Sequence record: SRR22947727_339
Strand: one strand, 5' to 3'
Length of the DNA stretch: 43,292 bases
In this document: positions 24,006 to 43,240 of the stretch, piece after piece
How the letters are laid out: each line of letters starts with the position of its first letter
How positions within the stretch are numbered: position 1 is the first letter of the stretch
The notes under the pieces: generated by a model
Seen by the model: the letters and a program-made list of their open reading frames with translations, nothing else
Database searches by the model: none
What the model was told of the DNA's origin: nothing
Program-made: the position numbers and the translations under genes

Positions 24006-24010
24006 GACAT

Positions 24011-24878: not shown

Positions 24879-25838
24879 CTATTTATTGTATTTGTTAATC
24901 TTACGAATCTCTACAGCAGGATTGCCAAAAACATAGGAGTTCTCTTTTACAGGCTTTGTAACAACAGACCCTAAACCAATCATTGAATTTTTTCCTATAC
25001 GTAATTTATTTAAAATTTTCGCACCAGGGGCCACCCAGCACCTTGTTCCCATACTCACACTACCAGCAATAACAACTTGAGGTGCAATAAAACAATGGTC
25101 GCCGACTTCACAATTATGGCCAATATTTACTTGGTTTCCAATCATAACTCCAACTCCAATTTTAGTGTCTTTTAAGGAACCCGCTACAATGATACTTTGT
25201 GATCCTATTATAGTATCCATGCCTATAACTACACGACCCAGATGGGGTAGGGTTAATTGTTTACCTTCTTGATTACGCTCTATGGCCTGACCAGGCACTC
25301 CAATAACTGAGTTGGCACGGATTATTGTATTTTCACCTATTACTGAACGACCGGTTAACATAACACCATGATGCAAAATAGCATTATTATGAACTTTACA
25401 TCCCTTTTCAACACTCACGAAAGGGCCAATATAAATATTATCGCCTAATACTACATCAGTGGCAATAAATGATAGCTTGTGAATTCCTTGCCTTGAACGC
25501 TCTTCATCTCGAAATAATGCGCGTACAGCTTGAAAAAAATAATGACGTGGTTTTTCAACTTCTACAATACTATAAGGCAATAATCTATGAGATTGAGTAT
25601 CATTATGTTCTCGCTTAGATTTTTTTATAATTAAAATCGCACCATCAGGTATATTGAAATTCGAAAGTGTTTTGGTCAAAGAAAAATTTGAAAAACTGAG
25701 AATAGACTTACCTGACTCTGAAATTGGTGCAACAGCACGTATGGATGCTCCGTTATCACATAGCGGGATAGCTTCACTTTCCCCTATAAGAGAAATTAAC
25801 TCAGCCAGTTCTAGAGGGGCTGAAGTTTCAAAGAGCAT
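24879..25838 (-). CDS. LpxD-like ACP-dependent N-acyltransferase (left-handed beta-helix), diverged paralog
   Basis: LpxD-like N-domain ('VEKPRHYF'), hexapeptide repeats, 'PHLGRVVIG', 'DTKIG', 'NQVNIGHNCEVG' retaining the catalytic His position, 'VFGNPA'. Confidence 0.8.
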   Translation of the reverse strand: MLFETSAPLELAELISLIGESEAIPLCDNGASIRAVAPISESGKSILSFSNFSLTKTLSNFNIPDGAILIIKKSKREHNDTQSHRLLPYSIVEVEKPRHYFFQAVRALFRDEERSRQGIHKLSFIATDVVLGDNIYIGPFVSVEKGCKVHNNAILHHGVMLTGRSVIGENTIIRANSVIGVPGQAIERNQEGKQLTLPHLGRVVIGMDTIIGSQSIIVAGSLKDTKIGVGVMIGNQVNIGHNCEVGDHCFIAPQVVIAGSVSMGTRCWVAPGAKILNKLRIGKNSMIGLGSVVTKPVKENSYVFGNPAVEIRKINKYNK

Positions 25839-25841
25839 GGT

Positions 25842-26084
25842 TTACTTACTTTGAGATTCTAAAAAAACTAAAAAATCACCCAATGTCTTTAAATCCTGAA
25901 GTTCATCATCTGATATTTTTATACCTAAATTTTCTTCTATACTAAGTAAAAAATTTACCATATCTAAACTATCCAGTCCTGCATCATATAGATCGTCACT
26001 ATTTTTCAATCCTTCAGCCTCAAACATTGGGGATGCTTCAATTAGATATTCAATCAGTGAATCTCTTAAATTAATTCCAGTCAT
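25842..26084 (-). CDS. Acyl carrier protein, pathway-specific
   Basis: Acidic 80 aa protein with phosphopantetheine site 'GLDSLD' and 'IEENLGIKISD'. Confidence 0.93.
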   Translation of the reverse strand: MTGINLRDSLIEYLIEASPMFEAEGLKNSDDLYDAGLDSLDMVNFLLSIEENLGIKISDDELQDLKTLGDFLVFLESQSK

Positions 26085-26085
26085 A

Positions 26086-27024
26086 TCATTTCCTTTTTAG
26101 GATTGCGCTTGCATAAGAAAATCCCACACCAAAGCCACATATAAGCACGCATTTTATATTTTTATCGCCTTCTATATCATTTAAAAGTAAAGGTATAGTT
26201 GAAGATATAGAATTTCCTAAGTTTTCTATATTAATTGGCACTTTTTCAGGCGGCAAATTTAATCGACGAGTTAATGCATTGACAATATATTTACTGCCTT
26301 GGTGGAGTAAAAATTTATCTATATTGTCTTTAGCTATACCTGTTTCCTTCAGCAAAGAAGTAATTTCGTTAGGTATTCGTTTTGCCGCAAAATTAAAAAC
26401 ATCACGACCATTCATAAACAGTTCACGCGACTCATTAATACATAAAGAATCGGACCCACTACCCTCACTTCCATAACGACCACCTATTAATTGCCAACCT
26501 GTATCTACATCGTTAGTAACATATGTAGCACAGGCCGCATCTCCAAAAATTAAAACTGTATTTCGGTCATCTTCTCGTACGGTTTTTGAATAAGGGTCTG
26601 CTGTTATTAAAACACCATTTTTTGCACCAATGGCTTGCATAAACCCTGTTATAGCGGCCAGGCCATAAACATAACCAGAGCAACCGAGTGATATATCAAA
26701 AGTTGCACATGTATTTGGTAATCCCATTTTCTCATGCACAATGGCCGATGTATGAGGTAAACCGTAAGAATCTGGATGCTGAGTTATAACTATCATTACA
26801 TCAAGACTTTGCAAATCTATACCTTTGGTTTGTAAATTACGAAGAGCATTTACCGCCATATCTGATGTCTCCTCGTCTGCTTTTTTACGAAGAACCGAGC
26901 AAGTACCAATTTTATTTTCTAAAAATAATATATTTGTACCAAGATCCGAGGCTCGAGGTGCATTCTCCAAGACTCTAGTTGGTTTGTAAATACCAATAGG
27001 GCCAAATGTATAATGATTTACCAT
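26086..27024 (-). CDS. 3-oxoacyl-ACP synthase III (FabH-like), pathway-specific
   Basis: Cys-His-Asn triad in 'LGCSGYVYGL', 'LHQGS', 'LGNSISSTIP'; also 'IFGDAA', 'MNGRDVF', 'GFGVG'; strong AGGGAG RBS. Confidence 0.93.
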   Translation of the reverse strand: MVNHYTFGPIGIYKPTRVLENAPRASDLGTNILFLENKIGTCSVLRKKADEETSDMAVNALRNLQTKGIDLQSLDVMIVITQHPDSYGLPHTSAIVHEKMGLPNTCATFDISLGCSGYVYGLAAITGFMQAIGAKNGVLITADPYSKTVREDDRNTVLIFGDAACATYVTNDVDTGWQLIGGRYGSEGSGSDSLCINESRELFMNGRDVFNFAAKRIPNEITSLLKETGIAKDNIDKFLLHQGSKYIVNALTRRLNLPPEKVPINIENLGNSISSTIPLLLNDIEGDKNIKCVLICGFGVGFSYASAILKRK

Positions 27025-27061
27025 AAGAACCTCTCCCTAAACATTTTCTCAATAATTTTAT

Positions 27062-27709
27062 TTATGTTTTATAAAAGTAAATACGGCCAGCCAAGTCATT
27101 AACACTATCAACCCCTACATCGGTGATAGACCCTAGACCATCTTTTAAAATTATACTCGTATTTGTTAATATAAGCTTAGGCTTAGCCTTATGATAAAGC
27201 AAAGGTAGTTGCAATCGAGTAGCAAGCCATTTGCAATCTTTATCAACCACGTCTTGATGCCAAAACTTGACCATTGCGACAAATATTTGTGATAACGATA
27301 ATTGAATATTTTTCTTATAAATTGAACCCGTTTTGTTAATCTTAACATCTTGACGGAATGAATTTTCCATGTCTACCAAACGCTCTGTCTCCTCAAGGCC
27401 TGTAGAACGAAGTAAACCAAATAATCTTTTTTTGCCTTTAGTAGTTAAAATTATTTGCGCAACCATATTTTTATCTGCTAGAGGTCGGCTTTCTGATAAA
27501 TAAAGCTCGACTTTACTGTGTATTAATCGCTTAAAAACGATATCTAACATCACATCTTCTTTTTGAAATTCTTTCGTTCCCGTAAAATCATCACTTAGAA
27601 TAAAGTCACAAACTGCGTCCCAAACATTAGCACTTTGAAGATAAGGGCGATCACCTTTAAATGGAATCGTTAGTGTAACCCAATCCAAACCAGTCAATTT
27701 AAACTCCAA
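27062..27709 (-). CDS. Hypothetical protein in the ACP/KAS III module
   Basis: 215-aa ORF filling the gap between the GT and the KAS III gene on the same strand; TTG start uncertain; motif-like 'FKGDRPYLQSANVWD'. Confidence 0.65.
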   Translation of the reverse strand: MEFKLTGLDWVTLTIPFKGDRPYLQSANVWDAVCDFILSDDFTGTKEFQKEDVMLDIVFKRLIHSKVELYLSESRPLADKNMVAQIILTTKGKKRLFGLLRSTGLEETERLVDMENSFRQDVKINKTGSIYKKNIQLSLSQIFVAMVKFWHQDVVDKDCKWLATRLQLPLLYHKAKPKLILTNTSIILKDGLGSITDVGVDSVNDLAGRIYFYKT

Positions 27710-27764
27710 ATAATTTTCTACTGCGCCAGTCAGACATAATGTTTTTTATCAAAAAAAACAGCAC

Positions 27765-29483
27765 TTATTTTAATAAATTAGCATAAAGCTTATTTAATCT
27801 GGTCACTTGTGCTAACCAGCCAAACTCATCATTAAGTTTTTGGGAAGCAATTTTGGAGCTAATTTTATCACTACGCTTAATTACATCTCTTATCACTTTA
27901 GCAATATCCTCAGGGTTTTCTTGTTCAACCAAAGCGCCTAAACTTCGTTCTTTTACTAATTCGGCCATTTCAATGATATCACGACCAATTAGAATAGGAA
28001 TATTTGCCATCATAGATTCAAAAAATTTATTGGGTAGCGCATAGATATAACTTAAACCAATATTTTGAGTGGGCATTACAGAAAAGTTAGCAGTTCGAAT
28101 GTAGTCCAACAAGAACTTTTGTTCCATTGGCCCCACCATGTGAAATCTATCAGCTATGCCTAGTTGCTTCACAAGGTTGATGAAATCTACCTCAGCCTTC
28201 GCTGTTCTTGGCCCGCAAACTACAAAATGCAAGTCTGGAATTTGGGCCACCGCTTCTAAGAAGAATGGTAAACCTCGTGTTATTTTTAAGCCTCCTACAT
28301 AAAGCCCTAATGGTGTATCTTTGGAAACACCAATATCATCGCGCAACTTTGTCGGTGCAGTCTCTGCTACTGAGATATCAGGAGTGTTATAAATAACAAC
28401 AGGTAAAGATACTCCGTGCACACGTTTAATTTCTTTTGCAAGACCGTGTGAAACCGTAATAATTGCATCAGCTTTTTTTGCAAAAAAACCTTCAAATACC
28501 TTAATTTCTTTTTTCCAGCGCCTATGGGAAGGCTTATCCCTATCTGTTTCTAACTCGTGTGCATCGTAAATCAATTTGGCCGAAGTATCTTCGGCAAGAA
28601 ATACACCAACTGGGACATTCACCAAATCGTGAGCATGGATTAAATCCGGAGCAAACGCGATAATTCGTTCCCGCACGGATTCATATATTCGAGCAGATCT
28701 GAACTTGGTAATACGGTAGACATAGGCTTCATCGGATTTATCACGTAACAGAAGCCCCAAAAGATAAGCATGAAGTCTTTTACTTTTTTTTGGTGCACTC
28801 TTATTAATAGTTTCAGCTTTTCTTTGCGCTGCATTTAAGGAAGGCTGCCCAAGTGAATGAAGCCAACGATCTATTAACACATAGGTTAAGGAGAAACCAA
28901 CTAAGATACTGAGTAAAAGCATCGGAATAAAGGAAATAATTCCAATGAAAAAAACAATGAAAAACAGGGAAGTGAACCACGAAAATTTTGCAAACCATAT
29001 GGAAAATTTAGTATATATACGAACGGGATACTCAAAAAAAACTCTTTTCAACTTCCGCAATCTTTTAACCCTTCGTGTTCCTTCCTTGTTAATATTCGTG
29101 AGTTTTTTATTATGGGCTTTGACGCTTGTTTTATAACGCTTTCTTAAAAAATCGACAGTATACTTGGTTAAATATGCTACAATAAGTAAAAAAGCAGTTA
29201 AGCAAAAATTAAACTTAGCAAAAAAACTACCCGGCATCTTGAACAGAAGTAGCTTTAAACTGATCCACTGGCTTTTTATATTTTGTGAATAGTATAAAGT
29301 CGACACCAAGTTGCGTTCATAGTTAACACCATTTATTTTACTATCCCCTATACTTTTACGTTTATCTCTGCAGAATACTCTAACTTCGTATCCAGCAGCT
29401 GCCATGGCTTCTGATGATCTGATGACACGATTATCTCTGATGCAATTATTATCTACAAGAACTGCTATTCTTTTCTTTTTCAT
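27765..29483 (-). CDS. GT4-family glycosyltransferase with a large internal hydrophobic/basic insertion
   Basis: 'DNRVIRSSEAMAAAGYEVRVF', 'PDLIHAHDL', 'IYDAHE', 'IITVS', 'VIYN', 'YVGGL...RG', 'ALPNKFFESM'. Confidence 0.9.
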   Translation of the reverse strand: MKKKRIAVLVDNNCIRDNRVIRSSEAMAAAGYEVRVFCRDKRKSIGDSKINGVNYERNLVSTLYYSQNIKSQWISLKLLLFKMPGSFFAKFNFCLTAFLLIVAYLTKYTVDFLRKRYKTSVKAHNKKLTNINKEGTRRVKRLRKLKRVFFEYPVRIYTKFSIWFAKFSWFTSLFFIVFFIGIISFIPMLLLSILVGFSLTYVLIDRWLHSLGQPSLNAAQRKAETINKSAPKKSKRLHAYLLGLLLRDKSDEAYVYRITKFRSARIYESVRERIIAFAPDLIHAHDLVNVPVGVFLAEDTSAKLIYDAHELETDRDKPSHRRWKKEIKVFEGFFAKKADAIITVSHGLAKEIKRVHGVSLPVVIYNTPDISVAETAPTKLRDDIGVSKDTPLGLYVGGLKITRGLPFFLEAVAQIPDLHFVVCGPRTAKAEVDFINLVKQLGIADRFHMVGPMEQKFLLDYIRTANFSVMPTQNIGLSYIYALPNKFFESMMANIPILIGRDIIEMAELVKERSLGALVEQENPEDIAKVIRDVIKRSDKISSKIASQKLNDEFGWLAQVTRLNKLYANLLK

Positions 29484-29560
29484 TATAATGCCTTACCGAT
29501 AAATACCATAGATGTTACAAACTTAATGATAATACTATTTATTCTTGTTCCAATAAAGAT

Positions 29561-30904
29561 TTAAGCTTTAACAATTCGTTCCGAATATTTATCGAAGATA
29601 CTTTTAGTTACATTTCGAGTATCAACCATTAGGGGAATAACTTTTACTATAGCTTCATAGTCTACATTTGTATGGCCAGTGGCAACAAGACAAGCATCAT
29701 AACTTTCAAAAGACTTTAAATCCCAACTAATAGAATTCATTCCTCCTAATTCAGGATGTTGACTATTAGGTGGAATTGTAGAAACAAAGGGATCATAGTA
29801 ATCCACTTCTGCTCCATGCTGACGCATAAGATTGATAAGCTCAAGAGAAGGGCTTTCACGCATATCATCAATATTTTTTTTATAGGCAATTCCAAGCAAA
29901 AGAACCTTTGAGGTTGCAAGCGCCTTTTTATTTCTTAAAGACATCTCTTCAAGAAGACGCGATACCACTCTATGAGGCATTCGCATATTTACTTCTCCAG
30001 CTAGTTCAATAAAACGAGTTGACACACCATACTGACGAGCCTTCCAAGTTAAATAATATGGGTCAATACGAATGCAGTGACCTCCTACACCAGGTCCCGG
30101 ATAAAACGGCATAAAACCAAAAGGCTTAGTTTTAGCAGCATCAACAACTTCCCAAATATCTATATCCATATGCTCAAAAATAACTTTTAACTCATTAACC
30201 ATAGCAATATTGACCCAACGAAATATATTTTCTACTAGCTTTGTCGCTTCAGCAGTACGGCTATTCGAAACCATCACAGTTTTAACAATAATATTATAAA
30301 GCTCATGCGCCATTGTACGTTCAACTTCACTATCCGCTCCAACAACTTTTGGAATCGTTGAAGTTTCAAAATCAGGGTTGCCTGGATCTTCGCGCTCTGG
30401 AGAATATGCAAGAGCAAAATCAGCACCTGACACTAAGCCAGATTCTTCAAGAATAGGCTTCATTATATCGGTTGTTGTCCCAGGATATGTTGTGGATTCT
30501 AAGATAATAATTTGTCCTGAGCGTAAAATCTGTTTTAATGTATGACATGTTTTTTCAACATAGGTCAGATTTGGTTGCAAATAATCATCAAGAGGAGTAG
30601 GTACACATATGAGAATTGCATCGACGGTTTCTAGTTCTTGATGATCTGTGGTGGCAGAAAACAAACCAGTGTGAAGTAAATTTTCGACACGTTCATTGGC
30701 TATATGTTTCATACCAGATTTTCCAGATAGTAAATCCTCTATCCTTTTATGTGAAATATCATACCCAATTATTTTTATGCCCTTGTTTATGAAAGCTTCC
30801 GCCAATGGTAGGCCAACATAACCTAGGCCTACTATACCAACAGTAAGCTTATTTGAGTTTATTTTTTTAAGAAAAATCTCTCTCATAAGTAATTTATTTG
30901 TCAT
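29561..30904 (-). CDS. UDP-N-acetylhexosamine 6-dehydrogenase (WbpA/WecC-type nucleotide-sugar dehydrogenase)
   Basis: 'GLGYVGLPLA', 'ICVPTP', 'ESTTYPGTT', 'SPEREDPGN', 'GVGGHCI.IDPYYL', 'AYKKNIDDMRESP'. Confidence 0.93.
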   Translation of the reverse strand: MTNKLLMREIFLKKINSNKLTVGIVGLGYVGLPLAEAFINKGIKIIGYDISHKRIEDLLSGKSGMKHIANERVENLLHTGLFSATTDHQELETVDAILICVPTPLDDYLQPNLTYVEKTCHTLKQILRSGQIIILESTTYPGTTTDIMKPILEESGLVSGADFALAYSPEREDPGNPDFETSTIPKVVGADSEVERTMAHELYNIIVKTVMVSNSRTAEATKLVENIFRWVNIAMVNELKVIFEHMDIDIWEVVDAAKTKPFGFMPFYPGPGVGGHCIRIDPYYLTWKARQYGVSTRFIELAGEVNMRMPHRVVSRLLEEMSLRNKKALATSKVLLLGIAYKKNIDDMRESPSLELINLMRQHGAEVDYYDPFVSTIPPNSQHPELGGMNSISWDLKSFESYDACLVATGHTNVDYEAIVKVIPLMVDTRNVTKSIFDKYSERIVKA

Positions 30905-31195
30905 AAATATTGATAACCTATTCTAACTAACAAGCAAAAAATAAAAGCTTTTGCTCAGCAATAAATCTTTATCTTAATAGCAGTTTCAAATATAAATTTG
31001 AAACATTCCTATTATTGTAATTTTCGTTTTCAATTACAGAATAATATTCAATGCAATGTATTTTAAATTTTAAGTGATTCTACCTTAATTTCTCGAGGAC
31101 TCTCAAGTAATTAGAATTTATAATCTTACAAGTCAACTCCACCCTTTTTAGTTAAACCTTAAAATTAAATTTTAAAATTTATTACAATTAACTTT

Positions 31196-32335
31196 TTATT
31201 TTTGAATTTTTTTGAAAAAAATATTTAATAATTCAGCAGCCTTATCTGCCGACAGGCAACTTTCATTTTGTACATACTCACCTTTTTTTAGTTCAATCAG
31301 ACCCTTTCGTAAAGATCGTAGGTTCTCTGGGTTTTCGAGTAAATTCATCCAATCCCCTCCACCTAAATAGAGTATTGGTCGACGAGCCAAGCAGTACTCA
31401 ACATATTTACCTGGCAAAGCATGGCTTTCCTCTGGAGTATACAAAACTAAACCGTCTGCCGCAGATTGCATAGCTTGTGATTTAGTTAAACTTATTTGTC
31501 CATGATATGTAATTTTTGCAGATGAATTATCTATTAATGACTTTTCATCTTTGGTTAAACGTCCAGCGATATGCAAATGTAATTTAGGGCGAATTAATGA
31601 GGTCTTTTCAAAAATATTTAAAAGAGGGAATAAATGTCTTCTTCGATCAGATAATGTAAAACCACCTGAATGGACAATGTTTACATCAGTTGATGGTAGA
31701 ATGTATTTCTCTTTCTGCTCTTCACTAAAATGTCCAATGATTTTATGCGGCACCGAAACTGGTGCAAAAGTCAATATATCATTCATAACGTATCTAGAAA
31801 CTGCAGTTAGTCCGGATACATACTTAAGAGCACGCCTAGCAATAAGTCTCTCTACAAAACGTCGCAGCATTGAACGTTCAAGAATTTTTCGGTGTGGATT
31901 ATGAAACCAAGTATCTCTAAATTCCGCCACCCAATGAACATTTAACCTCTTAGCTAACCTTGACCCAACTATATGAATAGACTCTGAAGGACTTGTTGTA
32001 AAAATACCGTCCGGTGTTATCCCACTTTTTATAACAGCACGCTCAACACGCTTAGCCCAAAGTATATCTGCATCTGGCCATAAAAACCAAATTCTCATTA
32101 CGTTTTTAAAATTGCTGAATATATTAAATGTAGATTTATTGGACGATATGTCGGAAATTGCATTACTAGCACTGCCAATCACACATATGTGGTCAGGATC
32201 ATCTTCTACATTGAATGGAGTTACTAGTGTAATTTTATAACCGATTCTCCTTAAGGCACGTACCAAAAGAAAGGGCCTCCTAGCGCCTCCACTTATTTCT
32301 GGTGGATAGTGTCGAACAAGAAACAAATAATGCAT
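31196..32335 (-). CDS. GT4-like glycosyltransferase
   Basis: 'HYPPEISGGARR', 'WPDADILW', 'TTSP', 'VAEFRDTW', 'PGKYVEY....RPIL'; starts 3 nt after the sqdB-like stop. Confidence 0.85.
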   Translation of the reverse strand: MHYLFLVRHYPPEISGGARRPFLLVRALRRIGYKITLVTPFNVEDDPDHICVIGSASNAISDISSNKSTFNIFSNFKNVMRIWFLWPDADILWAKRVERAVIKSGITPDGIFTTSPSESIHIVGSRLAKRLNVHWVAEFRDTWFHNPHRKILERSMLRRFVERLIARRALKYVSGLTAVSRYVMNDILTFAPVSVPHKIIGHFSEEQKEKYILPSTDVNIVHSGGFTLSDRRRHLFPLLNIFEKTSLIRPKLHLHIAGRLTKDEKSLIDNSSAKITYHGQISLTKSQAMQSAADGLVLYTPEESHALPGKYVEYCLARRPILYLGGGDWMNLLENPENLRSLRKGLIELKKGEYVQNESCLSADKAAELLNIFFKKIQK

Positions 32336-32338
32336 GGT

Positions 32339-33487
32339 TTAATTAGCAATCTGCATCGTTAATCTATTTAAAAGTATATTATCTTTATATTTTTGTATTA
32401 TTTTTAATTCAGAAATAAGTAATTCACTGTTTAATAAAGTCGGTAAAATTCCCATATCAGAAAATTGTGTTTTTTTAATTTCATAATTATTCGCTTGGCG
32501 TTCTTCTTTAAAATGTTCATCTGAGGATATTGAAACAGAGATGTCCATTTCACCAGCAGCCTTTTGTACCTTATTGGCTATATCAATAGCTGAATATATT
32601 TCAGAATATTGATTATGTATCTTTACCTCACCTTTACGCGCAGGGTTATCCACTGAATATTCGATACATTTTAATGTATCAACGAGGTTTTGGTAACATC
32701 TAAATTGAGATCCTGAATTATAAACTGTCAAAGGTAGGCCAACAATAGATTGAGCCATAAATCGATTTATAACATTACCAAATACACAATCATAATATAA
32801 ATTTGGCATTAACTTTTCATTTAAAGTCGTTTGTGGGGTTTGCATACCATAAATAATTCCTTGCATTAAATTACTACATCGCAAGCCATATTTTCGGGAG
32901 TAAAATAATAATAATTGCGAACTCATAGATTTACTTACATGGTATATAGAGTCGCCCTCACGAGGAAATAAAAATTTTTGAGGTTTCTTGTCTTTATCTG
33001 AAAGTTTTAACCAGCCATTTTCAATCGCTACATCTGGAATTCCATACTCACCAATTGACCCAATTTTTATCAAATGACAATCAGGCGCATATTGTATAGC
33101 TCCCCATATGGTATTAAAAGTTACCTCAATGTTATTAGTAAGAATGTTTTTGGCTTCATCTCTCCCTTGCATCGAATAAGCAGCAGAGGGTTGCTCAGCA
33201 GCATGTACAATTGCTTTCGGTCTAATTCGTTTAATTAAATCTTCTACAAAGTTTATGTTAGTTATGTCACCAATTTCAACGTGTATATTAAGACCTGTTT
33301 CTTCTAAAAATAGTTTGGATCTCACTGACAAGTCAGGATTATCAAACATGGTATTAGAACCAGAAATTTTTGTAATTTCACGCCGTAAATAATTGTCTAT
33401 AGCAACTACTTCATGACCCAAAGTAGCTAAATACATTGCGAGTGGCCAGCCTACATACCCATCAGCACCAAGTATTATAATACGCAT
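32339..33487 (-). CDS. sqdB: UDP-sulfoquinovose synthase-like extended SDR (SqdB/SQD1/Agl3 family)
   Basis: 'GADGYVGWP', 'DNYLRR', 'HAAEQPSAAYSM', 'HLIKIGSIGEYG', 'YHVSK', 'LMQGIIYG', 'YD.VFG.VINRF..Q...G.PLTVY' match this family; several positions are diverged. Confidence 0.8.
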   Translation of the reverse strand: MRIIILGADGYVGWPLAMYLATLGHEVVAIDNYLRREITKISGSNTMFDNPDLSVRSKLFLEETGLNIHVEIGDITNINFVEDLIKRIRPKAIVHAAEQPSAAYSMQGRDEAKNILTNNIEVTFNTIWGAIQYAPDCHLIKIGSIGEYGIPDVAIENGWLKLSDKDKKPQKFLFPREGDSIYHVSKSMSSQLLLFYSRKYGLRCSNLMQGIIYGMQTPQTTLNEKLMPNLYYDCVFGNVINRFMAQSIVGLPLTVYNSGSQFRCYQNLVDTLKCIEYSVDNPARKGEVKIHNQYSEIYSAIDIANKVQKAAGEMDISVSISSDEHFKEERQANNYEIKKTQFSDMGILPTLLNSELLISELKIIQKYKDNILLNRLTMQIAN

Positions 33488-33503
33488 TCGAATCCTTTAA
33501 TAT

Positions 33504-35297: not shown

Positions 35298-35307
35298 GGT
35301 AAAAACT

Positions 35308-36210
35308 GTGCGTAAACTATCCCATTTACAATTACTAGAATCAGAAAGTATGCATATTTTTCGTGAGGTTGTCGCCGAATCTGAAAATCCAGTAATGTTA
35401 TATTCAGTAGGTAAAGACAGCGCAGTTATGTTACATTTGGCACGAAAGGCATTTTATCCATCTAAAATTCCTTTTCCTTTAATGCATGTGGATACTACAT
35501 TTAAATTTCGGGAAATGATAACATTTCGAGAAAAAATACGTAAAGATCTAAATTTAGATATTATCGTTCATACAAATCCTGATGGTATCAAACAAAATAT
35601 GAACCCTTTCGACTTTGGTTCTGAGGTTTATACTAATATAATGAAAACAAAAGGCTTAAAACAAGCTTTAAACATTCATGGCTTTGACGCTGCTTTCGGT
35701 GGTGCACGGCGTGATGAAGAAAAATCACGCGCTAAAGAACGTATATTTTCGTTTCGCACAAAAGCCCACCAATGGGATCCAAAAAGCCAGAGACCTGAAT
35801 TGTGGAGCTTATATAATAGTCGCAAACATATCGGCGAAAGCATAAGAGTATTCCCACTATCTAATTGGACAGAATTTGATATATGGCAGTATATCTATCA
35901 AGAGAAGATTCCGATCGTACCGCTATACTTTGCTAAGAAGCGTCCAGTTGTTGAACGCAATGGCTCACTAATAATGGTGGATGATGAAAGATTACCTTTG
36001 TTCGCCGGAGAAGAGCCAACTATGAGAAATATTCGGTTTCGCACACTTGGTTGTTACCCCTTAACCGGAGCACAAATAAGCAATGCAACAACCCTACCGC
36101 AGATAATTCAAGAAACAATGATAGCCAAATTTTCTGAACGACAAGGTCGCGTAATAGATCATGATCAAAACGCATCTATGGAGAAGAAAAAACGCGAGGG
36201 CTATTTCTAA
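35308..36210 (+). CDS. cysD: Sulfate adenylyltransferase subunit 2
   Basis: '[11 protein letters not shown]', 'HVDT', '[15 protein letters not shown]', '[11 protein letters not shown]', '[11 protein letters not shown]'; GTG 35308 after AAGGT is the likely start. Confidence 0.96.
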
Positions 36211-38120
36211 TGAATATTCAAAATGCCGAAATATCTGTTGAAAAGTATATTAATGATCAAGAGAAGAAATCTTTATTGCGCTTTATAACATGTGGCAGTG
36301 TAGATGACGGAAAATCCACACTAATAGGTCGTTTATTGTACGAGAGCAAGTTGCTTTTTGAAGACCAGATTACAGCCCTTGAAGCAGATTCTATAAAAAG
36401 TGGAACGCAAGGTGACGGTATTGATTTTGCATTACTAGTTGATGGATTGGCATCAGAACGTGAGCAAGGTATTACGATAGATGTCGCCTATCGATTCTTT
36501 AGTACTAAGGCCAGAAAATTCATAGTGATTGATACACCTGGTCATGAACAATACACTCGCAATATGGCTACAGGTGCGTCACAAGCTCAGCTAGCTATTT
36601 TACTGATAGACGCGCGTCTGGGACTCTCTACTCAAACAAAACGTCATTCTTATATTATAAAATCTCTGGGAGTAAACCAAGTAGTCGTAGCGGTAAATAA
36701 AATGGACTTAGTTAACTATTCGCAGAACCATTACAATGAGATAATTGCAGAATACACTGAGTTCGCAAAAAAAGTGGGTATCAAAAACTTTAAAGCCATT
36801 CCTATATCAGCATTAAAAGGAGATAATGTTATAAAAAAATCAACAAGGATGCCTTGGTACAAAAGTAAAGCTTTAATGAACTATCTAGATACCGTTTCAT
36901 TTGATAACTTACAAACGTCTCAACCATTTCGTATGCACGTGCAATGGGTTAACAGGCCTAATTCTGATTTTCGGGGGTTTTCTGGGCGCATAACCTCTGG
37001 ACAAATTCAAGTTGGCGATAAAGTCACCGCATTACCATCAGGGTATGAAAGCAGAGTTACAAAAATAATCTCAATGGATGCCGATTTGGAAATTGCTTTA
37101 CCTAATGAGTCTATAACTTTATGCTTAGCCGACGAAATTGATTTAAGCCGTGGTGATACTTTATGCTCCAGCGTTGATACTCCTAAAATTTCGGATCGCT
37201 TTAAAGCTAACATTCTCTGGATGAGCGAAGATGACATGCAACCTGGGCAAACCTACTTAATGAAAATTGGTACACGTATAACTAATGCTACGGTTATGAA
37301 GCCAAAATATGCAATTGATATAAACACATTAACGCATATTTCGGCCAAAACATTAAAGCTTAATGAAACTGGGGTTTGTATAATAAATACTGACCAAAAA
37401 GTTGTATTTGAACCTTATACTGTTAATAAAGAAATGGGTAATTTTATTCTCATCAACCGCCTGACTAATTCTACTGTAGCAATGGGCATAATAGAGCAAG
37501 ATGCAAAAGCCACATCAATTGAACTTAGTACAGATAAGTTATCAATTGATCGAGATCTGCGAGCAGGACAAAAAAATCAAATGCCTGTAACTCTTTGGTA
37601 TACAGGTTTAAAATGGTCTGGAAAAACTTTTATTGCTAACGCTCTCGATAGAAAGCTATTCGCAAATGGAAATCACTCTTTCATTATTGACTCAAATTCA
37701 ACCTGGAAAGGTTTATCCGAAGATTTAAATTATGAGGATGCTGATAGAACAGAAAATAGTCGTCGTGTAGCGCAAGTTTGTGACATGATGAATAATGCAG
37801 GGCTAATTGTACAAACATGCTTTACTTCCTCGTTTTTATCAGAGAGAAGGACCGCAAAGAAAACTATTGGCGAAGATAATTTTATAGAAATATATGTCAA
37901 TACTCCATTAGAAGTCGCTGAAGCGCAAGATATGACGGGTTTTTATAAAAAAGCACGAAGGGGTGAAATAAGTAATATTGCAGGTATAGACTTAAAGTAT
38001 GAACCTCCATTATACCCTGACATCGTTTTAGGATCCCAAACTCATTCATATGAAGAAGCGGCAGATATTATTTTTAATGAATTAATAAAACGGGGCTTTA
38101 TAAAAAAATTATCTAATTAA
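36210..38120 (+). CDS. cysNC: Sulfate adenylyltransferase subunit 1 fused to a degenerate APS-kinase domain (CysN/CysC)
   Basis: Intact GTPase motifs 'GSVDDGKSTLIGRLL', 'DTPGH', 'NKMD'; C-terminal CysC-like domain with altered motifs; TAATG overlap with cysD. Confidence 0.93.
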   Translation: MNIQNAEISVEKYINDQEKKSLLRFITCGSVDDGKSTLIGRLLYESKLLFEDQITALEADSIKSGTQGDGIDFALLVDGLASEREQGITIDVAYRFFSTKARKFIVIDTPGHEQYTRNMATGASQAQLAILLIDARLGLSTQTKRHSYIIKSLGVNQVVVAVNKMDLVNYSQNHYNEIIAEYTEFAKKVGIKNFKAIPISALKGDNVIKKSTRMPWYKSKALMNYLDTVSFDNLQTSQPFRMHVQWVNRPNSDFRGFSGRITSGQIQVGDKVTALPSGYESRVTKIISMDADLEIALPNESITLCLADEIDLSRGDTLCSSVDTPKISDRFKANILWMSEDDMQPGQTYLMKIGTRITNATVMKPKYAIDINTLTHISAKTLKLNETGVCIINTDQKVVFEPYTVNKEMGNFILINRLTNSTVAMGIIEQDAKATSIELSTDKLSIDRDLRAGQKNQMPVTLWYTGLKWSGKTFIANALDRKLFANGNHSFIIDSNSTWKGLSEDLNYEDADRTENSRRVAQVCDMMNNAGLIVQTCFTSSFLSERRTAKKTIGEDNFIEIYVNTPLEVAEAQDMTGFYKKARRGEISNIAGIDLKYEPPLYPDIVLGSQTHSYEEAADIIFNELIKRGFIKKLSN

Positions 38121-38210
38121 ATATAACTCTAGAGATAATATATTTTAATATAATTATTTATAAAACTAAAAATGAATGGCTATGTAAAAACTAATAATAC
38201 TTTAGCTGAC

Positions 38211-39791
38211 TTAATTCGTTTCGTCATCATGATTTAAATCGAACCCAGATGAAACCGGCATTACAGTTGGATCTTTCCAATCATAGACCAAAAAGTTCTC
38301 GCCTAAATCCTTTTTCCATTTATTGGGAATATTAGCATTAGTAGGAACTATAATTTTTATAAAAGGATTGCGTTTGGCCACTGCTAAAATATCAGTTACA
38401 TTGCACTCACTTAATAAACGCCAATCAATGATAAAAATATTTTTTCCCACTTCTTGCCAATGATCAATTAGCTGCATAATAAGTGGATAAATTTGATTGG
38501 GAATTTTATCTAAATGCCTAAAATGATCTTTGACTACAGGACGCGTAATTATTATTGTCTTCTCGCTTGGTAAGTACTCAGCAGTCGAACAATTAGGGTC
38601 TGTAAACAATGTTTCAATACGTTCCAATAAATTAAGATAGTTAAAACGTGTAATTACACCATTTCCTTTCAAATGAAGAACAAAAGGTAGGCGATTTTCA
38701 AGACCTCCATACTTAAAATTTTCTCTTTCAATAGAATATTCTTGACTTATCAACAGAGAATTTTCGATATCACGTGACATTTTAATCTGGGGAAAAAGGC
38801 TGGAAAGTCCTCCAATACTCCCAAAAATACCACGAGCTTTATTCATTATTTGCAACATTAGAATTACCTGAAAAGCCAATAACCCGATACCGGCACCATC
38901 CTCTCCTTTGTTGATCACAATTGTAAAATAAATAAGACCAAGAATAAAAGCACTGACAATAATAGATGAAGATGCATCAAGAAATGCACGTTTTTTGCGA
39001 AGTTTATAACGACTGTTTAAAAATTTACTAAAATCAGGCTCTAGGGTTTGCTTATCGTGAATTTCAATTGGCAAACGATACAGGCGGTTAAGGAGTTTAC
39101 TTAGACGAGATGCAAAGGCTGGCAGCTTTTTAGTGAAATAGATTTCAGAAATTTTATATATATTTGAAGATTGATTAACCATAAGCAAACTAGTTAAAGT
39201 CAAAATTGGTAATATAACCAAGGCAGACTTCCAATTTAATAATGCTAAAAATATTAAGGCCAACCCCATGGATAAAGTTTCAGGAAATATTTTCAACTGA
39301 GCTTGCATGGCTTCACTAGTGTGGCGCACATTTCTTGACAGATTCTTTGAAAACCAAACTCTTTTTATACTGTTTCCGGCATCATATTTATAAAACTTAG
39401 TTCTTCGATAAACTTCCAAAATACGATTGGTTTCCATGTTAAAAAATCTTAAGTCAATTGTTCGTATCAATATTGTTTTAAGATACACCATACATTGCTG
39501 TAAAAAGATCGAGAAAAAAGCTAATAGAAAACAAATATAAAGTGGCACTCCAGTTATAATCTTTAAAAAAAATCCATCAGCCGCCGCAGATGAGAAGCCA
39601 CTAGTAACACTAAAAATTATAAATGCTGGCGCTACAACAACTAAAATATCGGCTAAAATAGATAGTACAATGTAACCGAAAACATACAATTTATTTATAT
39701 TTAGGAATATAATCAAGCGGTCCCACTCAAACATTTTAGAGAGATTTTTGATAAATGATTTTTCTGGTAAAGATTTATCTGGAGTTTTCAT
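38211..39791 (-). CDS. ABC-exporter-type transmembrane protein (MsbA/PglK-like TMD) without a recognisable ATPase domain
   Basis: About 6 hydrophobic helices with ABC_membrane-like spacing ('LALIFLALLNWKSALVILP'); soluble C-terminal region with no Walker A or LSGGQ. Start taken at ATG 39791. Confidence 0.55.
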   Translation of the reverse strand: MKTPDKSLPEKSFIKNLSKMFEWDRLIIFLNINKLYVFGYIVLSILADILVVVAPAFIIFSVTSGFSSAAADGFFLKIITGVPLYICFLLAFFSIFLQQCMVYLKTILIRTIDLRFFNMETNRILEVYRRTKFYKYDAGNSIKRVWFSKNLSRNVRHTSEAMQAQLKIFPETLSMGLALIFLALLNWKSALVILPILTLTSLLMVNQSSNIYKISEIYFTKKLPAFASRLSKLLNRLYRLPIEIHDKQTLEPDFSKFLNSRYKLRKKRAFLDASSSIIVSAFILGLIYFTIVINKGEDGAGIGLLAFQVILMLQIMNKARGIFGSIGGLSSLFPQIKMSRDIENSLLISQEYSIERENFKYGGLENRLPFVLHLKGNGVITRFNYLNLLERIETLFTDPNCSTAEYLPSEKTIIITRPVVKDHFRHLDKIPNQIYPLIMQLIDHWQEVGKNIFIIDWRLLSECNVTDILAVAKRNPFIKIIVPTNANIPNKWKKDLGENFLVYDWKDPTVMPVSSGFDLNHDDETN

Positions 39792-39799
39792 AGCTATAA

Positions 39800-40510
39800 T
39801 TAAAAGTCCCAACCAACATTAAAGTTAAATTTCATTTCTTGAAGAATTTTTGCATCAAGACCTCGTCGCAACACCTGTAACTTATTCTTTGGAGCTACTT
39901 CAGCTTCAGGGCAGGTCCACCAAATAGGGTGGGTTAAGAATTGCAATGCAAAGCCAGATTTTACACTGTGGTGATCTAAAGGATGACCATAATGCCATTC
40001 CCCCCTTGAATCTGATACATATCCAATATCATGTATAAATCTATTCTCATATGTATGGGAGAAACCATCAAACCTGTAATCCTTAAAGTTAAACTCTGCG
40101 GCATTAGCCGTTGGGCGATGAAAACTTATTAGTTTGACCTTTTGGCCTGTTATATTTTGCAATATAAGGGCTTCATGTTTGGCCTTTTGTTGTAAATCGA
40201 CATTTGCCTCTATCTCTAAATGCACTGCTATTTCATGACCCATTTCTACCATTTCTCTTAAGCGTTTTACATTGAGTGGATCAAGTGTATTATAAAACGG
40301 TGAGCTAAGAAGTATAAAAAAAACCGAAGACCAGCCAAAATTATTCTCAATTTTTGCTATTTCATAGGCCCGCTCAATGCTGACATCAACGTCATGGCGT
40401 AATAACAAATGACTTTTAAGTTTAGAAAAGTTATGAAACGAACGTGCTTCATACCCAATTTTCTTAAATTTCTTCAATATAGCGAGATATTCTTCAGTAA
40501 TTGGGTACAT
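39800..40510 (-). CDS. WbmS-like polysaccharide-deacetylase-fold protein
   Basis: 'LLRHDVD', 'GHEIAVH', 'SFHRP', 'YVSDSRGEW', 'QFLTHPIWW'. Confidence 0.75.
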   Translation of the reverse strand: MYPITEEYLAILKKFKKIGYEARSFHNFSKLKSHLLLRHDVDVSIERAYEIAKIENNFGWSSVFFILLSSPFYNTLDPLNVKRLREMVEMGHEIAVHLEIEANVDLQQKAKHEALILQNITGQKVKLISFHRPTANAAEFNFKDYRFDGFSHTYENRFIHDIGYVSDSRGEWHYGHPLDHHSVKSGFALQFLTHPIWWTCPEAEVAPKNKLQVLRRGLDAKILQEMKFNFNVGWDF

Positions 40511-40734
40511 TATTTATCTTTGTTATTAAATTATTCTAATGAGTGTATAATCAACAATTGCACATAAATCAGATATAATCCAACCGTTTGAACAAAAAGA
40601 TTATGTTGTTCTCTAGAAAATATAATAAATAATTAAATAAAATAATAAAGAGTACAAAGGTAAATTTTATATAGTTTAAACAGACTTTAAAGATTAATTT
40701 AAATCAATAAAATAACCACTGGAGCAAGACAGAA

Positions 40735-40977
40735 TTATACTTTCTTTGGTAAACCCAGAGCCCTCTGGCTCTTAGCTATACGCTCTTTAACTTCTAAAAT
40801 CTGAGCTCTCAATTCAAGTATCTCTAATTGAGATGAAAGCGCTTTAATTTTTTCTAACTTGGTATTTTCTGTATCGTTTTCTGTATCGTTTTCTGTTACA
40901 TTTTCTGATTTAACATCTACCACAGGAACAACTTCAGTTTTTAAATCAGCTTCATTTATCTTTTCTTTGGCGGCCAT
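40735..40977 (-). CDS. Small hypothetical protein, acidic N-terminus plus coiled-coil C-terminus
   Basis: 80-aa ORF with a strong AAGGAG RBS; heptad-like 'LEKIKALSSQLEILELRAQILEVKERI'. Confidence 0.7.
   Translation of the reverse strand: MAAKEKINEADLKTEVVPVVDVKSENVTENDTENDTENTKLEKIKALSSQLEILELRAQILEVKERIAKSQRALGLPKKV
40865..40912. repeat. 12-bp tandem repeat, 2 perfect plus 2 degenerate units, encoding SENV-TEND-TEND-TEN
   Basis: TTTTCTGTATCG TTTTCTGTATCG TTTTCTGTTACA TTTTCTGATTTA. Confidence 0.85.
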
Positions 40978-41142
40978 TAATCTCGCTCCTTTTGATGTTT
41001 TACGCGTTCAGGGACTACTTTCTTAGACTTATTGAATTATAGCAAATGACAATATTATAGCAATAATATTTTTATATTTATATCATAATAAATAATTTAC
41101 CCAAATAGGTAGTAATCAAAAAAAAATTGAATTTCACAATAT

Positions 41143-42267
41143 TTAAGAAAGAAATGAAATTGCGGTTTCGATAATCATTGCCTGAGTATGCTGATCTAAA
41201 TAAGGATGCATCGGCAAACTAATTATATTATGAATGCAAGACTCAGTGTTTTTCAGACTACTACCTTGAATAGGGAAATCCATATAAGCTGATTGATGGT
41301 GTACAGGTTTTGGGTAATAACGCGCAGTCGGAATACCTTTGCTTTTTAATTTATTTGCAAAGCTCAAAGGGTCAGAAACTTCGATAGTAAACTGTGCCCA
41401 TGTCGAAACAACACCATCGCGCACGGTGGGCACACGAAGAGCATAATTCCCTAAACTATCAATGTAATTAGAAGCAATAACATTTCGTTTTTCAATTTCA
41501 TCATTAAATATTGCAAGCTTAGGAAGAAGAATTGCAGCTTGAATTGTGTCTAGACGTGAATTAACCCCAATACGAATATTGTCATACTTATCAGTTCCTT
41601 TTCCATGCACCCGTAATGATTTTAAGACTTCTGCCATTTTATTATCATTTGTCAAAATGGCACCACCATCACCATAACAACCAAGCGGTTTTGCTGGAAA
41701 GAAACTAGTTGTGGTGGCATCTGCCCAATATATAGGGTGATTGCCATTTAGTGTAGTCCCAAAACCTTGAGCTGAATCTGCTAATAGTTTTAATTTTTCA
41801 GTCTTAGCAATTTCTGATAATGCAATATAATCAGCGCTTTGACCAAATAAATCTACAGCAATAATAGCTCGTGGTATTAGTTCACCTGCAGTCTTAACCT
41901 CATTGATCGCATTAATAAGACTTGTAGAATCAATATTATAAGTAGCTCGATCAATATCAATAAAAATCGGTGTCGCTCCGACATTTACTATACTCTCAGC
42001 AGTTGCACAGTATGTGAAAGAAGGACAAAAAACAGCATCGCCCGGACCAATTCCCCAAGACAATAAGGCAATATGCAAAGCGTCTGTTCCGTTTGCACAA
42101 CTTATAGCATGTTTTGCATTACCAAAATTTGCAAGCTCTGATTCAAACTGCTTAACTTCTGGTCCCATTATAAAGCCACCATGCTCTAAAACATTTTGTA
42201 TACCCTTATTAATCTCATTTTTAATTCGTTTTCGTTGTGCCTGTAAGTCTATAAATTGAATAGTCAT
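41143..42267 (-). CDS. DegT/DnrJ/EryC1/StrS sugar aminotransferase (WbpE/WlbC/GnnB-like)
   Basis: 'IQFIDLQAQ', 'CANGTDAL', 'VDLFGQ', 'DSAQGFG', PLP-Lys motif 'SFFPAKPLGCYGDGG', 'NSRLDTIQAA', 'SLPMHPYL'; start MTIQF at 42267. Confidence 0.93.
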   Translation of the reverse strand: MTIQFIDLQAQRKRIKNEINKGIQNVLEHGGFIMGPEVKQFESELANFGNAKHAISCANGTDALHIALLSWGIGPGDAVFCPSFTYCATAESIVNVGATPIFIDIDRATYNIDSTSLINAINEVKTAGELIPRAIIAVDLFGQSADYIALSEIAKTEKLKLLADSAQGFGTTLNGNHPIYWADATTTSFFPAKPLGCYGDGGAILTNDNKMAEVLKSLRVHGKGTDKYDNIRIGVNSRLDTIQAAILLPKLAIFNDEIEKRNVIASNYIDSLGNYALRVPTVRDGVVSTWAQFTIEVSDPLSFANKLKSKGIPTARYYPKPVHHQSAYMDFPIQGSSLKNTESCIHNIISLPMHPYLDQHTQAMIIETAISFLS

Positions 42268-42280
42268 GTCTATCTTTCTT

Positions 42281-43240
42281 CTAAGCAGATGGTAAGTTAG
42301 GAGCTTCAAGAACGCGTAAAACACGCAATCCCTCTTCCGCATCAGTAATAGGAGTGGTCCCGTTTTTTATACAATTTAAAAAATGTTGGCACTCTAACTT
42401 TAAAGGCTCTCCCATGGGAACATTTATATATTCTACATCCCTCTTTATCGGCTCAGGTATAGAATTACTATTATCAATGTCATGACGGTATAATGCTAGT
42501 TTCTGCTCCCAATTAGCCGTATCATCAAACACAGCCATTGCTTTTTCGCCGACAAGGACAAGTCGTTGCTCTTTAAAAGGATGGAGCCATGATGTAAAAA
42601 TATGAGCTCGACCACCACGCGGAAAGATAAGGTCAAGGCGCGCCTCATCAACAATACCCTTAGTTATAAAATCAAGACCTTTACCATGTATCGTAGATGG
42701 TGACTCGCCAAACAAGGATAAAATCATCGATAAATCATGAGGCGCCAATGACCAAAAGGCATCTTCTTCTATCCTAAATTTTCCCATACTCAAACGATTT
42801 GAGTATGCATAGCGTAATTTACCAAAATCGCCCGCTTTAACCATCTTAAGCAATTCAACAAATACAGGATGATACTGAAGCAGGTGTCCAACCATCAAAG
42901 TAACATTAGCTGACTTTGCAGCATCACGCATAGCCTCACCGTCAGCGACAGAAAGCGCCAGAGGCTTTTCAACATAAATATGTTTTCCGGCAGATATTCC
43001 CTCAAGAGCAAGCTTTTTATGAAGTTCTGCAGGCGCTGCAATTACAATCCCTGAAACCTCTTCATCCGCCAAAACCTCAGACATTTTCATAGCACATACA
43101 TTATATTCTTTTGCATGCACCATTGCTATTTTAGGGTTGGGGTCAACAATAGATTTTAATGCATCAAGCTCTGCAAAATTCCTTGCAAGGTTTTTACCCC
43201 AATACCCACAACCTACTACAGCCACTTTTATACTTTTCAT
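42281..43240 (-). CDS. Gfo/Idh/MocA nucleotide-sugar 3-dehydrogenase (WbpB/WlbA/GnnA-like)
   Basis: 'VGCGYWGKNLARNF', 'VEKPLA', 'MVGHLLQYHP', 'WSLAPHD', 'SWLHPFKE', 'EPLKLECQHF'. Confidence 0.9.
   Translation of the reverse strand: MKSIKVAVVGCGYWGKNLARNFAELDALKSIVDPNPKIAMVHAKEYNVCAMKMSEVLADEEVSGIVIAAPAELHKKLALEGISAGKHIYVEKPLALSVADGEAMRDAAKSANVTLMVGHLLQYHPVFVELLKMVKAGDFGKLRYAYSNRLSMGKFRIEEDAFWSLAPHDLSMILSLFGESPSTIHGKGLDFITKGIVDEARLDLIFPRGGRAHIFTSWLHPFKEQRLVLVGEKAMAVFDDTANWEQKLALYRHDIDNSNSIPEPIKRDVEYINVPMGEPLKLECQHFLNCIKNGTTPITDAEEGLRVLRVLEAPNLPSA

Follow-up and report, generated by a model that had tools for sequence, protein, structure and literature searches.

Sulfoquinovose is among the most abundant organosulfur compounds and is normally counted as the head group of a photosynthetic lipid, sulfoquinovosyl diacylglycerol (SQDG). 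In the cyanobacterial sqdB–sqdX arrangement, sqdB is followed directly by a gene for a GT-B/GT4 glycosyltransferase of ~380 aa; the Alphaproteobacteria have a classical sqdB–sqdD–sqdC operon. A non-lipid destination is described for the Agl3 pathway, which serves the N-glycans of Sulfolobus acidocaldarius (accessible part of PMC8987622). In the literature that we searched, which excluded subscription journals and was in part accessible only in excerpt, non-lipid sulfoquinovose was found for archaeal N-glycans only, and no paper was found that combines sqdB, cysH, sulfite, and a gene cluster. Here we describe a locus in which an sqdB gene lies with genes for ATP sulfurylase and adenylylsulfate (APS) reductase among surface-glycan genes, at positions 24879–43240 of a window of 43,292 nucleotides (sequence record SRR22947727_339; the window is the whole stretch of DNA analyzed, and positions refer to it). 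A preliminary description had proposed one pathway there, for a sulfonated and N-acylated surface glycan or glycolipid with its own sulfite supply. The best explanation that we can offer, in which we place about as much belief as doubt, is that a small marine Maricaulales-type alphaproteobacterium carries here a surface-glycan island that varies between strains, with an inserted sulfoquinovose cassette and an acyl cassette. The genes named in the preliminary description are all present between 24879 and 43240, as confirmed by the open reading frame (ORF) map and by Pfam and NCBIfam scans.

The gene on which this explanation turns encodes an SQD1-type SqdB of 382 aa (32339–33487, minus strand). 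It matches the SQD1 structures 1qrr and 1i24 with E values of 3.5e-77 to 4e-77 over residues 2–374 of 382, and is a full-length homologue of Arabidopsis SQD1 within the extended short-chain dehydrogenase/reductases, with ~40% identity judged by eye. Its GSIGEYG and YHVSK stretches align with GTMGEYG and YHLSK of SQD1, keeping the S/T, the Y, the adjacent H, and the K. The full-length match and the retained catalytic residues make this a credible UDP-sulfoquinovose synthase, as had been proposed. The enzyme differs from SQD1 and SqdB in having S-I-G instead of T-M-G and YHVSK instead of YHLSK or YHTTK, and in that genes for an APS reductase and an ATP sulfurylase of its own accompany it. A motif census of 121 aligned homologues found T-M-G in 117 and YHTTK in 116, whereas S-I-G occurs in 4; its combination with YHVSK is common to the window enzyme and three close relatives.

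Next to sqdB lie the genes that would provide its sulfite. A CysB-family LysR regulator (33504–34457, minus strand; NF009327 234 bits, under the cut-off of 402) is encoded 16 nt upstream of sqdB and divergently from cysH (34551–35297, plus strand). CysH scores 232 bits against NF002537 (cut-off 154) and 221.9 against TIGR02055 (cut-off 235.3); it carries the motifs CC, CxxC, and ECGLH at residues 119, 202, and 232, which mark Fe-S APS reductases, and sulfite would therefore come directly from APS. CysD, the small subunit of ATP sulfurylase (~35308–36210, plus strand; NF009214 525 bits), and a CysN–CysC fusion of the GTPase subunit with APS kinase (36210–38120, plus strand; NF004035 874 bits) follow. 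CysD, CysNC, and CysH thus all exceed NCBIfam cut-offs for an ATP sulfurylase and an APS or 3'-phospho-APS (PAPS) reductase, and neither Pfam nor NCBIfam revealed a sulfite reductase gene within the island.

Comparison with 257 genomes of the same bacterial family shows that this linkage recurs. SqdB proteins of the window type (45–63% identity) are found in nine of these genomes, from six genera, and seven of the nine encode cysH and/or cysD/cysNC within ~8 kb of sqdB; of the remaining two, G086 has none within 20 kb and G270 carries its sqdB on a 2.7-kb contig, too short to judge. The closest cassette, in G265, is the same cysB–sqdB<>cysH–cysD–cysNC block at 53–85% amino-acid identity, with its regulator in the same position (69% identical), CysD at 85%, and CysNC at 74%. 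In G081, G114, G139, G271, G071, and G211, cysH is next to sqdB and cysD/cysNC are mostly nearby. In the family at large, cysH (182 of 257 genomes) and sulfite reductase (172 of 257) are normally adjacent. No match to the sulfite reductase domain PF01077 was found in G114, G071, G139, or G271 (96–100% complete, with G114 and G071 assembled as single contigs), in each of which cysH adjoins sqdB; this cysH is the sole copy in the first three, and G271 has two cysH matches. G081 and G211 both encode two cysH, one adjoining cysI and one adjoining sqdB. A second type of SqdB, discussed below, has a cysH of ~250 aa within ~250 bp in at least 13 genomes (G023, G037, G080, G087, G100, G118, G124, G143, G244, G245, G246, G253, and G259). 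The sqdB–cysH pairing is thus general in this family, and because the adjacency recurs in several genera the clustering exceeds chance. A dedicated supply of sulfite to SqdB, the best-supported part of what had been proposed, is therefore well supported by the way these genes behave in relatives. Many of the 13 or more genomes also have a second cysH beside cysI, and in G139 (contig C78, locus L080) two cysD–cysNC pairs within 12 kb, at 2568–5296 and 11408–14223, flank sqdB–cysH.

The cassette is set into genes that form a cluster of their own in related genomes. A WbpA-like UDP-N-acetylhexosamine 6-dehydrogenase (29561–30904, minus strand; TIGR03026 407.6 bits) matches UDP-ManNAcA/ManNAc dehydrogenases in the PDB (E 3e-63 and 6e-57), and its homologues, 58–68% identical, adjoin WbpB/E in relatives. 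The putative UDP-2-acetamido-3-keto-sugar aminotransferase (41143–42267, minus strand; PF01041 of the DegT family, 316 bits; likely start at M26 of a 399-aa ORF) is of the WbpE type, matching the Pseudomonas aeruginosa WbpE structures with E 8e-98. Beside it lies a GFO/IDH/MocA oxidoreductase (42281–43240, minus strand; PF01408) in the position of the sugar 3-dehydrogenase WbpB or GnnA. The label "WbpB-like" holds for this conserved position, as homologues 65–75% identical directly adjoin WbpE in relatives, but less so for structure, as the PDB yielded generic GFO-family proteins only (best a putative oxidoreductase, E 3.4e-23) and the score against the UDP-GlcNAc 3-dehydrogenase model NF040723 is 148 bits, under the cut-off of 450. 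Two glycosyltransferases belong to the same set, a GT4 protein of 572 aa whose N-terminal extension has about three hydrophobic segments by hydropathy (27765–29483, minus strand; PF00534/PF13439) and a divergent GT-B protein of 379 aa, here GT379, in which Pfam recognizes the GT4 N-terminal half only (31196–32335, minus strand). Homologues of the 572-aa GT4 lie beside Wbp genes in loci L015, L016, and L018 (E 1e-38 to 2.5e-52). The locus goes on past 43240: a metagenome contig 99.9% identical over 20,951 bp (L065) extends 195 bp beyond the window and encodes there the last 55 aa of a WbpD-like acetyltransferase. In L014, L018, and L020 a hexapeptide gene 78–80% identical to this fragment lies upstream of WbpB.

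GT379 has 112 homologous proteins, whose titles name Robiginitomaculum, Hirschia, Algimonas, and Woodsholea. A genome scan gave 23 GT379 loci, 11 of which have at least one WbpA, WbpB, or WbpE homologue (58–75% identity) in their flanks; Pfam also places additional GT4 genes in these loci and, upstream of WbpB, a WbpD-like hexapeptide gene of ~200 aa. None of the 23 has an SqdB match in its flanks, and one (L024) has cysD–cysNC. In G014, of the window's own genus, the arrangement is GT379<>WbpB–WbpE–WbpA...GT4, with no sqdB, cys, or acyl cassette. Because GT379 loci and G014 carry this core without sqdB, we regard WbpD/B/E/A, GT379, and the 572-aa GT4 as the ancestral cluster, by gene content the diacetamido-uronate glycan cluster commonly found in related Maricaulales-type genomes, and the other genes as additions in three cassettes: cysB–sqdB<>cysH–cysD–cysNC; a CE4 deacetylase with a multi-transmembrane protein; and unk215–KAS III–acyl carrier protein (ACP) with a short LpxD paralogue. 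The single pathway of the preliminary description thus gives way to a mosaic, in which GT379, WbpA/B/E, and the GT4 form a resident cluster that relatives possess without sqdB. The core resembles the WbpA/B/E/D diacetamido-uronate pathway in having the 6-dehydrogenase, a putative 3-dehydrogenase, the aminotransferase, and a fragment of the N-acetyltransferase in the order seen in relatives; it differs in that its oxidoreductase is not close to the solved WbpB/WlbA structures and in that the window showed no 2-epimerase of the WbpI type. A further metagenome contig, L064, matches the window at 99.9% identity except that 27978–31734 are missing. Its junction, at a 7-bp microhomology, joins residues 1–198 of GT379 in frame to the final 70 residues of the 572-aa GT4, and WbpA is lost. 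On another contig a 268-aa protein with the same fusion shape (P0003) is called; the variant is either an assembly artefact or a natural deletion in the glycan core.

The settings of sqdB in relatives offer hints on the likely use of the sulfoquinovose. A different SqdB type, 32–36% identical to that of the window, occurs in 27 of 61 and 124 of 257 genomes in two scans, and in 3 of 12 loci examined (L037, L038, and L039) a GT8 and a short-chain dehydrogenase/reductase come after it, the classical sqdB–sqdD–sqdC order. Two complete genomes carry both types at separate loci, and a plasmid collection gave SqdB homologues of at most 36% identity only. The lipid operon therefore exists in the family around a different SqdB, consistent with the earlier proposal that the present setting is not that operon: the product nucleotide sugar would be the same, but the window has neither a GT8 by Pfam nor an SqdC. 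A query for an SqdD-like GT8 matched G015, the positive control, but gave nothing in G001, G006, G014, or G265; no such protein was found in G114, G071, G023, G037, or G139 either. In five of the nine window-type loci (G081, G086, G114, G139, and G071), sqdB is flanked by genes for a PseB-like dehydratase and a GT2 protein of ~700 aa, and in G114 the genes pseB-like, sqdB, cysH, GT2, a small ORF, cysD, and cysNC form one co-directional run. Given these operon contexts, the lack of SqdD, and a cassette set within a glycan island, we favor a glycan as the predicted destination. The likeness to the Agl3 pathway (PMC8987622, accessible part) is that UDP-sulfoquinovose would feed a non-lipid glycoconjugate; here, however, a bacterium and a locus of O-antigen or capsule type are involved, instead of an oligosaccharyltransferase system, and a glycosyltransferase specific for sulfoquinovose was not identified. 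The conserved ~700-aa protein that accompanies window-type sqdB and cysH in five relatives (L077:13694–15793, L078:7117–9231, L079:11410–13431, L080:6095–8263, and L082:6532–8667) has an N-terminal part of ~370 aa with no assigned domain, followed by the GT2 domain, and is a candidate sulfoquinovosyltransferase. At L089 (G071:C1:2029500–2042700), in a complete genome, an alphaproteobacterial-type SqdB lies beside a Bac_transf initiating sugar-phosphate transferase, a Wzy_C protein, and a cytidylyltransferase, and not beside SqdD.

The acyl cassette begins at the left end of the island with the short LpxD paralogue (24879–25838, minus strand), of 319 aa, with an N-terminal domain and a left-handed beta-helix. 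It scores 209.9 bits against NF002060 (cut-off 207) but 149 against TIGR01853 (cut-off 242.5) and does not hit PF04613; LpxD structures match residues 123–307 at E ~6e-22, and the alignment ends near residue 306–313 of LpxD chains of 341–348, so that the C-terminal helical extension is missing. We regard it as a putative acyl-ACP-dependent sugar N-acyltransferase; as the lipid A enzyme of the organism it was rejected, a canonical LpxD (282.5 bits) being encoded elsewhere in G001. Metagenomic relatives are 44–65% identical, distant relatives of 285–330 aa bear names from Pseudoalteromonas, Vibrio vulnificus, Chryseobacterium, and Bacteroidia, and 401 sampled genomes of the class gave no match at E<=1e-40. 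Upstream lie genes for an ACP of 80 aa with the phosphopantetheine-site motif GLDSLD (25842–26084, minus strand; PF00550, E 3.1e-11), which scores under all NCBIfam ACP cut-offs, and for a FabH-like KAS III (26086–27024, minus strand; PF08541/PF08545), which matches the FabH-like structure 3gwa (E 5.2e-44) and keeps its Cys, His, and Asn motifs as GCSGY, HQGS, and GNSISS. Between KAS III and the GT4, unk215 (27062–27709, minus strand) had no Pfam match even at E<=5 and no homologue in the compared loci, and its single-sequence AF2 model was unusable (pLDDT 31). In joining an LpxD-type beta-helix acyltransferase to a condensing enzyme and an ACP of its own, the cassette recalls LpxD and the ACP-dependent N-acylation cassettes of O-antigen and capsule loci; it differs in that the paralogue lacks the C-terminal helical domain and fails the equivalog model and in that no ketoreductase is included.

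The second addition pairs a deacetylase with a membrane protein. The deacetylase (236 aa; 39800–40510, minus strand) had no Pfam match, with PF22537 and PF01522 not hit, but its AF2 model (pLDDT 93.7) has a CE4 (NodB-type) fold, with CE4 deacetylases as top Foldseek matches (28 at E<=1e-3). Its Asp/His metal site is conserved: H39, D40, D42, H97, and H131 are invariant and H92 nearly so in the family, which is large (3168 representatives at E<=1e-3). Of the earlier designation as a WbmS-like deacetylase, the deacetylase fold is supported; the resemblance to WbmS (3hft, E 1.9e-3) and to ArnD (E 1.6e-3) is loose. The neighboring unk533 (38211–39812, minus strand) has ~7 hydrophobic segments and a soluble C-terminal domain, and may be an exporter or flippase-like component. 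It had been called ABC-TMD-like, which we could not sustain: no Pfam match was found at 1e-3, a single chance-level one at E<=5, none of an ABC family, no Walker A was seen by eye in the C-terminal domain, and the language-model lead is weak (score 0.92, with 109 features shared and PF00664 present in 16% of members). A plausible role for the acyl genes would be to N-acylate the diamino-uronate. GlcNAc3N(3-hydroxybutyryl)A, the malyl variant, and related N-acyl GlcNAc3NA are residues of marine O-antigens (PMC3210612, the part available), so that the predicted chemistry would be of a known kind. Since a WbpD-like enzyme is present, such acylation would need prior deacetylation, for which the CE4 enzyme is the candidate, or another acceptor.

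Taken together, the island could work as follows. The WbpA/B/E/D-like enzymes would make a diacetamido-uronate that GT379 and the 572-aa GT4 build into a glycan. CysD/CysN would convert sulfate to APS, which the Fe-S type CysH would reduce to sulfite, and the SQD1-type SqdB would join sulfite to UDP-glucose, giving UDP-sulfoquinovose; the sulfite would be destined for SqdB and not for cysteine, and the CysB-family regulator would govern the whole cassette. An island glycosyltransferase most likely would use UDP-sulfoquinovose to decorate the glycan, with GT379 as first candidate because it appears co-transcribed with sqdB (gap 3 nt). CE4, KAS III, ACP, and the LpxD paralogue probably would remove the N-acetyl group from an amino sugar and put a short 3-oxo- or 3-hydroxy-acyl group in its place. 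The sequences establish the gene identities, the mosaic build, and the recurring sqdB–cys linkage; the enzyme activities, the use of the sulfoquinovose, the acyl chemistry, and a coupling of the sulfoquinovose cassette to the Wbp glycan and to N-acylation are inferred.

Several observations weigh against this reading. Neither of the two glycosyltransferases in the island could be linked to sulfoquinovose. Members of the GT379 family are encoded in 43 of the 257 genomes, of which none has a window-type SqdB, 20 have the other type only, and 23 have neither (a cross-tabulation of listed genomes, in which kin are not independent), and GT379 as a dedicated sulfoquinovosyltransferase was rejected on these 23. 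The ~700-aa GT2 is absent from the window and was not found in G265 or G001, and no initiating transferase, flippase, or polymerase was recognized inside the window. Homologues of ACP, KAS III, unk215, unk533, and the CE4 deacetylase were found in no other compared locus, so that their link to sqdB is unique to this lineage, the only one in which the full gene combination was found; joint function of the cassettes finds no support in the comparison of loci. Of the co-occurrence that had been envisaged, the sqdB–cys part recurs, whereas ACP–KAS III–LpxD-like genes never lie beside sqdB in the nine other sqdB loci. Since a WbpD-like enzyme is encoded, the diamino-uronate could be completed with no contribution from the LpxD paralogue. 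The G265 cassette sits amid sulfur and amino-acid genes and not glycan genes, in a genome that has a sulfite reductase; 10 of 17 genomes of the window's genus have one too, and its absence from the window's lineage is drawn from G001 alone. The SqdB itself reaches 331.9 bits against the equivalog NF041015, under the cut-off of 575, and its S-I-G departs from the fingerprint [ST]MG-xn-Y-x3-K published for UDP-sulfoquinovose synthases (PMC8987622, accessible part).

A first alternative is a sulfolipid, with UDP-sulfoquinovose passing into SQDG through an SqdX-like GT379 or an unlinked lipid glycosyltransferase and the Wbp and acyl genes as mere neighbors. GT379 starts 3 nt past sqdB and presumably shares the size and GT-B/GT4 type of SqdX, a likeness to the cyanobacterial sqdB–sqdX pair; the G265 cassette has no glycan neighbors, hence its product would be used there by an unlinked enzyme; marine small-genome life would suit the sparing of phosphorus by a sulfolipid; and SQDG features in chemotaxonomic descriptions of related prosthecate genera, although these did not turn up in our literature search. 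We nevertheless regard this alternative as rather unlikely. The 23 GT379 genomes with neither SqdB include most of the closest homologues (G105, G117, G014, G070, G098, G146, G176, and G083); the spread of the family is thus independent of SqdB, unlike that expected of an SqdX, and GT379 accompanies WbpA/B/E instead. An SqdD-type synthase was not found in the nearest genomes, and members of the window-type SqdB clade elsewhere lie in operons with glycan genes.

The departures of the SqdB sequence raise another alternative, namely that the GSIGEYG/YHVSK sub-clade is not a synthase acting on UDP-glucose but sulfonates a different UDP-sugar, such as UDP-GlcNAc, or is a 5,6-dehydratase. The rarity of the S-I-G and YHVSK pair (4 of 121 homologues, against T-M-G and YHTTK), the published [ST]MG, the score under the equivalog cut-off, the neighboring genes for UDP-GlcNAc-derived sugars, and the formation of the 5,6-ene by SQD1/Agl3 in the absence of sulfite (PMC8987622, accessible part) would agree with this. 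The substitutions are however conservative and spare the catalytic S/T, Y, H, and K, and the close linkage to APS reductase points to the use of sulfite, which leaves a change of chemistry very unlikely. That linkage could itself be incidental, if cysB–cysH–cysD–cysNC were simply an assimilatory operon acquired after the lineage had lost its own, and sqdB a passenger drawing on the common sulfite pool, with no dedicated supply. CysB-family regulators are typical of assimilation, cysH and sulfite reductase are widespread and usually side by side in the family, and the genome with the closest cassette, G265, has a sulfite reductase. Against this, the island and the nearest genome G001 lack a sulfite reductase gene, four genomes keep an sqdB-adjacent cysH with no match to sulfite reductase, two more keep a separate cysH–cysI besides the sqdB-linked cysH, and at least 13 further genomes pair a ~250-aa cysH directly with the other SqdB type; we consider such a housekeeping role highly improbable. 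A glycan island with a sulfoquinovose cassette supplied by its own sulfite branch hence remains our preferred explanation.

The variability of the region is apparent from G001 (1.8 Mb, 97% complete), which shares window positions 3400–16131 at 99% DNA identity and 21071–24698 at 82–90%. The trio at the island border (21801–24838), of an FAD-dependent pyridine-nucleotide-disulfide oxidoreductase, a DedA/VTT membrane protein, and a DUF547 protein, is conserved in order in G001 with 73–88% amino-acid identity. Past DUF547, G001 continues with a single DegT gene and then rnpA–yidC, and no SqdB, cysH, sulfite reductase, GT379, or SqdD-like GT8 was found in this genome. Compared with the window copies, CysD and CysNC of G001 reach only 66% and 49% identity; they are encoded on a different contig. 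There (G001:C31, L051, 6069–8857) cysD–cysNC are kept with neither cysH nor sulfite reductase, which suggests that G001 can make APS and PAPS but neither sulfite nor sulfide and that these genes serve sulfation only. DNA-level sharing of the island with the family genomes is limited to 63–70% matches to cysDN, WbpA, and WbpB/E. In metagenomes, the cassette stretch is found in 19 listed runs from 10 marine studies, 4 rows of which may be the source itself, and two metatranscriptome runs contain 0.98 and 0.91 of the sampled cassette words, with carry-over of DNA possible. Scanning metagenomes with SqdB added no new contexts: in two loci the SqdB was 100% identical, and a third match was spurious.

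Within the island most genes are on the minus strand, and the plus-strand cysH, cysD, and cysNC (34551–38120) sit between two minus-strand groups. Gene spacing suggests four transcription-like units: WbpB–WbpE; CE4–unk533, which overlap by 13 nt; cysB–sqdB–GT379, with gaps of 16 and 3 nt; and WbpA–GT4–unk215–KAS III–ACP–LpxD-like, with gaps of 77, 55, 37, 1, and 3 nt. A small acidic, coiled-coil-like ORF, unk80 (40735–40977, minus strand), had no Pfam match at 1e-3, chance-level matches only at E<=5, and no homologue in the compared loci, and is perhaps no gene. Neither the promoter scan (78 vs. 81 in shuffles) nor the terminator scan (7 vs. 11.7) exceeded shuffled sequence, the island flanks showed no repeats of note and no tRNA at the borders, base composition showed no step at the cassette, and no Rfam family reached threshold within 20000–43292. 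Outside the island, ARAGORN called a tRNA-Leu(CAG) at 14391–14478 (minus strand), within the ORF of a type II secretion secretin (13135–15042); this call is probably false.

A practical consequence concerns annotation: given the linkage, its occurrence with two SqdB types, and its presence in at least 20 family genomes, a lone APS reductase adjoining SqdB should not be equated with sulfate assimilation. Beyond this we propose, tentatively and with somewhat more doubt than conviction, that some marine Maricaulales-type bacteria make a surface polysaccharide containing sulfoquinovose, fed by a sulfite-ending branch that would serve SqdB alone in genomes incapable of making sulfide, and combined in the present lineage with an N-acyl diamino-uronate. 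If true, no earlier sulfoquinovose glycoconjugate other than a lipid would be known from bacteria, and the proposal would explain why cysH and cysDN survive in streamlined genomes that have no sulfite reductase. It would also place a new anionic, hydrolysis-resistant C-sulfonate on bacterial surfaces, relevant to recognition by phages and grazers at a hypervariable locus, and would reveal heterotrophic bacteria as an overlooked marine pool and source of sulfoquinovose for the sulfur cycle.

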